Source: Eledone cirrhosa
Taxonomy: Eukaryota
Direction of reading: 5' to 3'
DNA length: 64,000 nucleotides
Assembly (NCBI GenBank): GCA_964016885.1
Contig: OZ024742.1
Location: forward strand, 360,468,001-360,532,000
Shown: one piece after another, positions 14,660 to 16,105 of the stretch
How the letters are laid out: each line of letters starts with the position of its first letter
Position numbering within the stretch: the first letter of the stretch is position 1
The notes under the pieces: model-generated
The model's input: only the letters and a program-made list of their open reading frames with translations
Database searches by the model: none
What the model was told of the DNA's origin: nothing
Position numbers and translations under genes: made by a program

Positions 14660-14725
14660 ATCCCGAATTAAGCCGTACAGTGTTTAGCACCATCGTTGCC
14701 CTTTTGTTCAACACTGACAAAGGAA

Positions 14726-14766
14726 CGATGTACTAGTTTCAAGCTTATTAGCTATCGTCAGCACCG
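14726..14766 (-). ncRNA. Minimal type I hammerhead ribozyme, family 1 copy a
   Basis: CGGUG CUGACGA U AGCU-AAUA-AGCU U GAAA C-UA-G UA CAUCG: stem I CGGUG/CAUCG, palindromic ACUAGU stem III, GUA cleavage triplet. Confidence 0.85.
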
Positions 14767-15149
14767 TATATCTTCCTGCTAGATGATTGAACGTCTGAAA
14801 GTATATACTTTCCTTATGCATATTAACAGCTGAGCAGCCTAATTTGTATATCGAGTGAGTTAATCGGCCGGGCGCACCGAAAACGATAAACGGAAAAAAT
14901 GAAACAAAATTTCATTTCTCACTCTTAGTACGGCTGTTACTTAAATATAAGTATGTACACGTACATACATATATGTATACAGACGTACAGTAGTATGTAT
15001 ATATATACATGTACACATATATATATGTACATAGGGATTCACCGAACATTTATTATAATGCTCCGTGTGTTTGTAAACAAACATCCCGAATTAAGCCGTA
15101 CAGTGTTTAGCAACCATCGTTGCTCGTTTGTTCAGCACTGACAAAGGAA

Positions 15150-15190
15150 CGCTGTACTAGTTTCAAGCTTATTAGCTATCGTCAGCACCG
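15150..15190 (-). ncRNA. Minimal type I hammerhead ribozyme, family 1 copy b
   Basis: Same core as copy a; stem I CGGUG/CAGCG has one mismatch. Confidence 0.8.
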
Positions 15191-16105
15191 TATACCTTCG
15201 TGCCAGATGAATGAACGTTTACAAGCACACCGAGCATTATAATAAATGTTCGGTAAATCCATACGTACATATATATATATGTGTGCATGTATGTATATAT
15301 ATATACATACTACTGTACGTCTGTATACATATATGTATGTACGTATACATACTTATATTTAAGTAACAGCCGTACTAAGAGTGAGAAATGAAATTTCGTT
15401 TCATTTTTTCCGTTTATATATATATATATATATATATATATATATATATATATATATATATATATATATATATATATATATATATATATATATATATATA
15501 TATATATATATATGTATATATATATATATATATATGTATGTATATATATATATATATATATATATATATATATCATATATATATATATATATTTACATAC
15601 ATAGATATATGTACGGTATTCGTGGTACCGGTTATTCGCGGAATTTTCCTTAGAACCCAACTAATAATTGTTCGTGGAAACCACCGTATATTCGTGGAAT
15701 CGTAAATATCTTCAGTGATTTTTAATTGCTTTTTTGTGGCAATATACATTTTTTAACGCTAAATTATACCGTATTTACCGGTATATTGGAGCCCTTTCCC
15801 ATAAGATGCTCTCTCTTTTTTTTATTATATTTTACGTTGTATTTTTACATTTATAGGTATTTTTATGAACCACGTCCGATATTCGCGGTTTTTCACTCTT
15901 CACTAGAGCTCTAGGAACGTAACCCCTGGTGTTGTCCAGCAGAAGCAATTTATTTTAGCCCGTTCCCTTGCACTCATGATTACATCAGAAACGTAACTTT
16001 TTACTCAATTTTGTTGTCTGATGAAATCACGTGACCAAGATCGTCATTGGAATATGTATCACATCCTTATTAATAAAGGACTCTTTACAACTTCGCATTT
16101 TGAGA

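Follow-up and report, generated by a model that had tools for sequence, protein, structure and literature searches.

The element at 14660-15417 is probably a single insertion of a hammerhead repeat with a 424-nt unit, which is very abundant and encodes no protein. Its template was probably an uncut RNA longer than one unit, and the copying enzyme that of a Penelope-like element (PLE). Such copying would explain the combination of two direct ribozyme repeats with one flipped arm. The repeat family is new, and its kind is already known from across animals: it is a non-autonomous, hammerhead-bearing PLE derivative (non-LTR retrozyme). Coordinates refer to the window, the whole 64-kb stretch of DNA (64,000 nucleotides) that was analysed.

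Layout of the insertion and its target

The two ribozyme-bearing repeats, H1 and H2, do not form a plain tandem. Their direct repeat extends over only 136 nt, and an inverted arm lies upstream of H1. The initial annotation took the pair for a simple tandem, but the region before H1 (15217-15417) repeats 14886-15078 in inverted orientation and is not a previous unit. On the minus strand, the order is (TA)n, inverted X, H1, X, Y, H2, and a broken LINE. The features are as follows.

9544-14659, plus strand: broken L1/Tx1-type LINE, with endonuclease, RT and zf-RVT pieces in order; L1/Tx1-type is by domain order
14660-14794, minus strand: H2, pLTR-like ribozyme-bearing repeat of 135 nt; its 3' end at 14660 is the direct-arm end, 71 nt past the predicted cut
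14725-14767, minus strand: hammerhead 2, with a helix I of 6 bp (6/6 pairs, one G·U) and core C3 at 14761
14731-15154, minus strand: 424-nt unit between the two predicted cuts, with 36.6% GC and a circular fold predicted at -124 kcal/mol
14795-14885, minus strand: Y, 91 nt, single at the locus; joined to H and X in other copies (pieces X5-12 and X6-20)
14886-15078, minus strand: X, 193 nt, beginning with an AC-rich hairpin (~15068-15084) and also holding a TA-rich one (~14937-15033)
15083-15218, minus strand: H1, ribozyme-bearing repeat of 136 nt; its 5' truncation point, 15218, lies 33 nt before the core
15149-15191, minus strand: hammerhead 1, with the same core (C3 at 15185) and a predicted cut after 15155
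15217-15417, plus strand: inverted arm, an opposite-strand copy of X (14886-15078), head-to-head with H1 and overlapping it by 2 nt (15217-15218)
15415-15610, no strand: (TA)n microsatellite (TRF), the probable target at the inverted-arm end

The direct repeats (14660-14794 and 15083-15218) share 93% identity. The direct arm ends at 14660, at the foot of an AC-rich hairpin, and the inverted arm starts 4 nt from the position where the direct arm ends. The X end at 14886 is likely the 3' terminus of the family. The two arms terminate at different points of the repeat: the inverted-arm end lies 269 nt past the cut and the direct-arm end 71 nt past it, a difference of ~197 nt. The inverted arm differs from X by 8 substitutions and 2 indels; a fold-back artefact of the assembly was rejected on these grounds. 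TRF finds no 424-nt array at the locus.

The unit contains no ORF of at least 150 aa. With its length of 424 nt and GC content of 36.6%, it falls within the range of retrozymes (150-450 bp, GC <50%, protein-free). The circular 424-mer is predicted to be 66% paired, with a z of -6.5 (0/60 shuffles as low), or -3.4 without the TA-rich hairpin.

The surroundings of the two ends are unequal. An AT-rich, microsatellite target is present at the inverted-arm end only, and the opposite end adjoins GC-rich LINE DNA. The locus has no target-site duplication; the flanks of the two ends differ and the 3' end of the LINE is missing. Replacement of the LINE 3' end at 14659/14660 had been noted from the start, and the truncation is confirmed: homology ends at 14658, and ORF2 is broken at the junction, ~28 codons before the stop of its relatives. 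When ORF2 is compared with the last 62 residues of six relatives, the homology ends at 14658 in four and at 14667 in one, with a weak run-on in the sixth. The missing 3' end is absent elsewhere in the 64-kb window. A contig of run X6 runs past 14658 with different letters, which do not occur in the window beyond chance. The target DNA, including the LINE 3' end, was presumably deleted at insertion.

A different reverse transcriptase gene is located on the minus strand at 31206-34631. It is an uninterrupted frame of 1141 aa with an RT and a zinc finger, followed by (AAT)n, and broken relatives lie at 28587-30257, 36488-36964, and 45478-45841. We take the frame to carry a C-terminal restriction-like endonuclease motif and to merit the label R4/Dong.

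The repeat family in sequencing reads

The H-X-Y repeat is a very abundant family. Four of 23 listed runs were compared with 14400-15420. Among 12,467,656 raw RAD records under the same species label, 89,859 match this 1-kb stretch, a figure that includes the LINE part and partial matches, with 79% continuing into unlike sequence, and from which no copy number is derivable. Matches under 16 other organism labels were rejected as a host range; the two compared gave 21 and 14 records, which may be trace or diet DNA.

Reads or contigs cover all three junctions of the unit, namely H/Y, Y/X (X6 piece 20, 14822-14990), and X/H (X1 piece 8, 15035-15220), and H continues into Y in 6 of the 15 joints listed (there are 57 further joints). 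H-X-Y with a period of 424 nt is therefore the family unit, and the 424-nt unit of the initial annotation stands as the period of the family. None of the long pieces of the compared runs shows a head-to-tail array. The junction between H1 and the inverted arm is bridged by no piece among those listed and is thus specific to this locus.

These junctions also bear on whether the element could be a MITE, with X and inverted X as terminal inverted repeats that carry H1 and sit at TA, and with H2-Y as an independent neighbouring element. The 193-nt arms do flank H1, and TA is found at 14887-14888 and 15415-15416. However, Y/X and X/H junctions exist in other copies (X6 piece 20 and X1 piece 8), and H normally continues into Y. 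Moreover, the H1/inverted-arm junction is unbridged among the listed pieces and the points of inversion vary, contrary to what fixed terminal inverted repeats would require. A MITE is the least credible of the origins considered, and we give it very little weight.

A strand switch from H to X occurs in 4 of the 15 listed joints (again with 57 further joints). The arrangement is head-to-head, like that of the locus, with other breakpoints: H at 14719, 14770, 14770, and 15196 is joined to X at 14955, 14933, 14942, and 14934, respectively, and none of these is an AATT site. The points on X fall in its last 50-70 nt, and three of the four joints stop ~9-11 nt upstream of the core. All four come from one RAD library, with 60-74 reads and 1-3 start points each, and may include chimeras. 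Strictly complementary breakpoints were rejected as a rule of the family, as other copies invert at 14933-14955 and not at 15078.

The head-to-head joints are relevant to an origin by DNA rearrangement after insertion, by which an array or neighbouring copies would have been trimmed and inverted through recombination or deletion, with removal of the LINE end as well. Such an origin would fit the lack of a target-site duplication, the unlike flanks and the repeat-rich region, and the direct-arm end need not be the terminus of the family. But reads of the family again show a head-to-head geometry with a short overlap and with (TA)n at the arm end, and the same geometry is seen in other ribozyme-like families of the window. 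The start of the inverted arm only 4 nt from the direct-arm end also argues against it. We regard rearrangement as improbable, and copying by a PLE enzyme remains the preferred origin.

The initial annotation held that a ribozyme core degenerate in most copies would speak against its proposal; this is not obviously the case, as none of the best 40 of 193 differences falls inside either 31-nt core. In one read group (68 reads, single start), G8 is altered. At the locus itself, 0/9 differences between H1 and H2 lie inside the 31-nt core, which has a chance probability of ~0.09 and is not significant as a sign of core selection. A variant at 15188 accounts for about half of the depth in X1 and for 1338 of 1437 plus-mate reads in X21. 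It would form U·G at the helix I pair that is G·G in H1 and G·U in H2, with linkage deduced from read mapping.

Compared with the read majority, 6/9 of the H1/H2 differences and 3/10 of those between X and inverted X are private to a single copy; the remaining 10/19 are ambiguous or polymorphic in the reads. The private differences suggest that the copies were likely near-identical at insertion, with decay of a few percent since then.

Read starts and ends at 14666, 14841/14844, 14911, and 15089 were considered as ribozyme cuts and rejected, since they coincide with AATT, the ends made by the RAD enzyme. About 29,000 reads have diverse loose ends before 14907/14908. These could mark a common terminus, but this position is also an AATT site.

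Hammerhead motifs and the question of monomer release

The minus strand carries two identical 31-nt type I hammerhead cores, with C3 at 15185 in H1 and at 14761 in H2. Both read CUGACGA-U-AGCU-AAUA-AGCU-U-GAAACUAGUA. The predicted GUA cut is located directly after 15155 (H1) and 14731 (H2), giving a spacing of 424 nt. These positions bear out the earlier observation of two copies 424 nt apart that share a CUGACGA core and stem II. The type I core, CUGANGA ... GAAA ... NUH, is intact in both copies, and self-cleavage at GUA is predicted from it.

Hammerhead 2 has a helix II of 4 bp that stands on U·U, a helix III reading AC-UA-GU and a predicted cut after 14731. Hammerhead 1 also has a 4-bp helix II on a U·U base, and its helix I forms 5/6 pairs, the third pair being a G·G mismatch.

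The pattern CTGANGAN{8,30}GAAACTAGTA has 2 matches in the 64-kb window and 0 in each of 100/100 shuffles; the pattern was derived from the hits themselves, so the shuffle test only rules out composition noise. Rfam gives 76 matches at E<=1 for the 64-kb window, none of them to a hammerhead family, and the single match in 14660-14900 at E<=10 is not a hammerhead. The Rfam miRNA matches in the window were rejected as TA-repeat noise with scores below gathering. A 77-bp inverted repeat at 16138-16306, almost perfect and with a loop of 15 nt, has sub-threshold Rfam miRNA matches on both strands and is likely a small fold-back element.

According to one study (PMC4209133), a canonical hammerhead has a helix I of 6 bp, a helix II of 4 bp and a palindromic helix III of 1-2 bp, and the minimal hammerhead of PLEs is defined by a bulge, a G10.1-C11.1 pair and a longer helix II. 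By these definitions, the H1/H2 sequences are of the canonical type and not of the minimal PLE type. The term "minimal" in the initial annotation thus names the wrong class: helix I has 6 bp and helix II 4 bp, starting with U·U and then A-U. Its suggestion that the palindromic ACUAGU of stem III suits dimeric cleavage is supported by two papers (PMC4209133, PMC7229834). An axolotl ribozyme whose helix II likewise stands on U·U is described as cleaving to 22% as a single unit and more efficiently in dimeric form (PMC7229834). The U·U base may therefore, by analogy, be compatible with activity.

Other hammerhead-like motifs are present in the window. The segments 7910-8720 and 18700-19190 form one family with a min-HHR-type motif at 8109 (minus) and 18944 (plus), which has a bulged U and a 6-bp helix II and is followed by (TA)n. 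The 18700-19190 copy has a 102-nt inverted arm and an extra extension of ~65 nt. An inverted pair of ~136-nt repeats (4763-4897 and 6866-7001) contains a min-HHR-type core at 4879 (minus) and a core-mutated copy at 6884 (plus). The bulge and the G-C pair of the min-HHR are found in the motifs at 4879, 8109, and 18944. The element at 46972-48081 consists of direct repeats (47313-47546 and 47848-48081) and an inverted arm (46972-47315 against 47648-47989), with both ends on (TA)n. Its hammerhead-like cores at 47703 (plus) and 47260 (minus) have weak stems, and 16874-17692 is an older relative. A two-module composite repeat family at 21898-23213, 25349-25782, and 37097-37742 occurs in direct and inverted arrangements and adjoins (ATGT)n; it contains no hammerhead core by the pattern used. 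Long minisatellite or microsatellite arrays occupy 574-3309, 20439-21845, 38427-40834, 41140-43695, and 52287-64000, with periods of 55, 12-36, 3, 32, and 28. Judging by this repeat content and by homologues that are mostly animal-like, the host may be a marine invertebrate rich in microsatellites.

The arrangement of H1 and H2 raises the question of whether the locus works as a tandem retrozyme dimer, in which a double hammerhead would make two cuts and release a 424-nt monomer that circularises. The cores are intact and identical, helix III is palindromic, and the size and GC content of the unit are within the retrozyme range. The U·U ribozyme of axolotl also acts better as a dimer. In a nested folding model, without tertiary contacts and without calibration on an active retrozyme, RNA 15218-14700 without the inverted arm adopts the double-hammerhead fold at 9.5 kcal/mol, no costlier than the two separate single folds at 11.7 kcal/mol; with other end points, the double fold without the arm costs 14.9-16.8 kcal/mol.

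The inverted arm changes this balance in the model. With 32, 42, and 199 nt of the arm included, the cost of the double hammerhead would rise to 21.6, 34.2, and 162.8 kcal/mol, respectively, because a duplex of ~190 nt between the inverted arm and X crosses the fold. Separate single-hammerhead folds remain at 9-12 kcal/mol. Thus, an RNA starting more than ~30 nt into the inverted arm would pair with X across the dimer fold. In addition, the G·G mismatch of site 1 persists in both single and double folds, and even a monomer that had been cut is predicted to remain paired to the upstream fragment over ~190 bp. Only 1/9 predicted retrozyme dimers cleaved in vitro, according to a recent report (10.64898/2026.07.22.740005). 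We therefore consider a working dimer unlikely at this position.

This locus is predicted by the model not to release free 424-nt RNA. The initial annotation expected the pair to release a monomer, an expectation that is not supported at the locus, given the predicted ~190 nt of pairing by the inverted arm and the G·G in helix I of H1. A transcript of 14700-15220 excludes the inverted arm, so that a positive result with it would concern the family and not the locus. As a caution, two hammerheads one unit apart need not amount to a productive retrozyme locus.

Probable Penelope-like origin and comparison with known systems

The layout of the locus is that of an EN+ PLE insertion, which the initial annotation had overlooked. 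Such insertions, as portrayed in two papers, comprise two direct repeats and a head-to-head inverted truncated copy, with an optional 30-40-nt tail and a bias for (TA)n (Arkhipova 2013, PMC3846280; Craig 2021, PMC8557442). The locus likewise has direct repeats and a head-to-head inverted truncated arm. A purified PLE protein (Poseidon PAc from Anolis) extends both target strands in vitro. It begins copying at an internal point of the RNA, an AC-rich stem-loop that lies downstream of the hammerhead, and has no need for cleavage (Frangieh 2024, PMC11167929). Animal retrozymes are non-autonomous PLE derivatives according to Li et al. 2026 (10.64898/2026.07.22.740005).

The ribozyme type was also sought outside the window. 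A loose core pattern found eight loci in metagenome contigs. Three of them (L005, L009, and L011) have a helix II of at least 3 bp; the other 5/8 do not and look like chance. At L009, the same helix III lies ~430 nt behind a gene for RT, CxxC linker and GIY-YIG on the same strand, together with an unselected 6-bp helix II. The gene (228-2163) is a Neptune-like PLE with one frameshift, and its hammerhead after the stop is of type I. L005 and L011 are related solo hammerheads, with no RT/GIY-YIG gene among the ORFs scanned. None of the eight loci is similar to the element outside the core, and L009 has no blastn match to it at E 0.01. Since the similarity is limited to the pattern-selected core, L009 represents the ribozyme type inside a PLE and not the partner.

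Neither the metagenome contigs nor the genome contigs contained a locus that matches the exact or near-exact core patterns. A looser pattern found four loci in viral sequences, none with a helix II of more than 1 bp. A PLE RT alignment found one genome-contig locus, which ends inside the RT, and 0 viral loci. The window holds no autonomous PLE (best tblastn E 0.74 with the L009 RT/EN), so the PLE partner of the element is one that we infer; no GIY-YIG is present among the 71 window ORFs scanned. Two sequences with bacterial labels are likely animal DNA: L013, on a contig labelled bacterial MAG, has a fragment of a PLE-type RT on one strand and a min-HHR-like motif on the other, and P0007, labelled Herbaspirillum, is a LINE ORF2 relative.

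In the proposed insertion, the enzyme would nick both target strands and two cDNAs would start inside the RNA. The long cDNA would start at 14660, where the AC-rich hairpin has its foot, 71 nt beyond the cut site, and the short cDNA at the X end (15417), on (TA)n. The two would be joined head-to-head via the 2-nt overlap, with loss of the intervening target, including the LINE 3' end. Source copies of the family, by analogy with known retrozymes, may be weak cleavers as single ribozymes and more active as dimers paired through ACUAGU, yielding 424-nt monomers or circles. The locus would be a decaying daughter copy, whose read-through RNA is predicted to form a duplex of ~190 bp without releasing a monomer. 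Among the points that weigh against a PLE origin, the arm ends lie ~197 nt apart, far beyond the published 30-40-nt tail, and there is no target-site duplication, although the literature treats such a duplication as optional.

A more specific version of this origin is possible and, in our judgement, doubtful. In this version, a Neptune-type PLE enzyme would have copied 1.8 rounds of a retrozyme circle and primed both target strands on the same RNA from start sites ~197 nt apart. The short cDNA would have stopped 4 nt short of the long-cDNA start, and the inverted arm would silence each new copy as a long duplex. If true, a family with thousands of copies would offer a genome-sequence test of a PLE model with two start sites and a circular template. 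The breakpoints at the locus provide a handle on the start sites of PLE copying and on the circular-template question.

The element resembles four known systems. Compared with the minimal hammerheads of PLEs, as covered by Cervera and de la Pena 2014 (PMC4209133), H1 and H2 share the type I core, a palindromic 15.2-16.2 region and predicted dimeric action. They differ by lacking the bulged base (between 9 and 10.1) and the G10.1-C11.1 pair, and have a helix II of 4 bp in place of 7-8 and a helix I of 6 bp in place of 4-5.

With EN+ PLE insertions (PMC3846280, PMC8557442), the locus shares two direct ribozyme repeats, a 5'-truncated head-to-head arm, a short overlap, a microsatellite target and unequal ends. 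In contrast to them, it has no ORF and no target-site duplication, its inverted arm lacks any part of the direct-arm end, and its ends differ by ~197 nt instead of by a 30-40-nt tail. Poseidon PAc (PMC11167929) offers a resemblance only: a copy end downstream of the hammerhead at an AC-rich stem-loop, an uncut RNA template, an AT-rich target and extension of both strands. Unlike in that system, the second start at the locus would be ~197 nt from the first. The less ordinary features of the locus are this difference between the arm ends and the near-complementary breakpoints, the latter being no rule in other copies. Searches of an open-access library for the 424-nt family and for twin priming in PLEs led to the general literature cited here; among the papers listed, none presents twin priming as a mechanism of PLEs, and a published account may nonetheless exist.

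The element also resembles the metazoan non-LTR retrozymes, as presented in two reports (Cervera and de la Pena 2020, PMC7229834; Li et al. 2026, 10.64898/2026.07.22.740005). Shared features are a type I hammerhead, a protein-free unit of 150-450 bp with GC <50%, a highly self-paired predicted circle, a short palindromic helix III, a U·U as in HHR_Amex2, and proposed mobilisation by PLEs. Unlike their head-to-tail arrays, the locus consists of 1.3 direct units and an inverted arm. The latter report tested the link between retrozymes and PLEs by sequence only in Xenopus. The locus ties a retrozyme-sized unit to a PLE-type insertion in an invertebrate-like genome.
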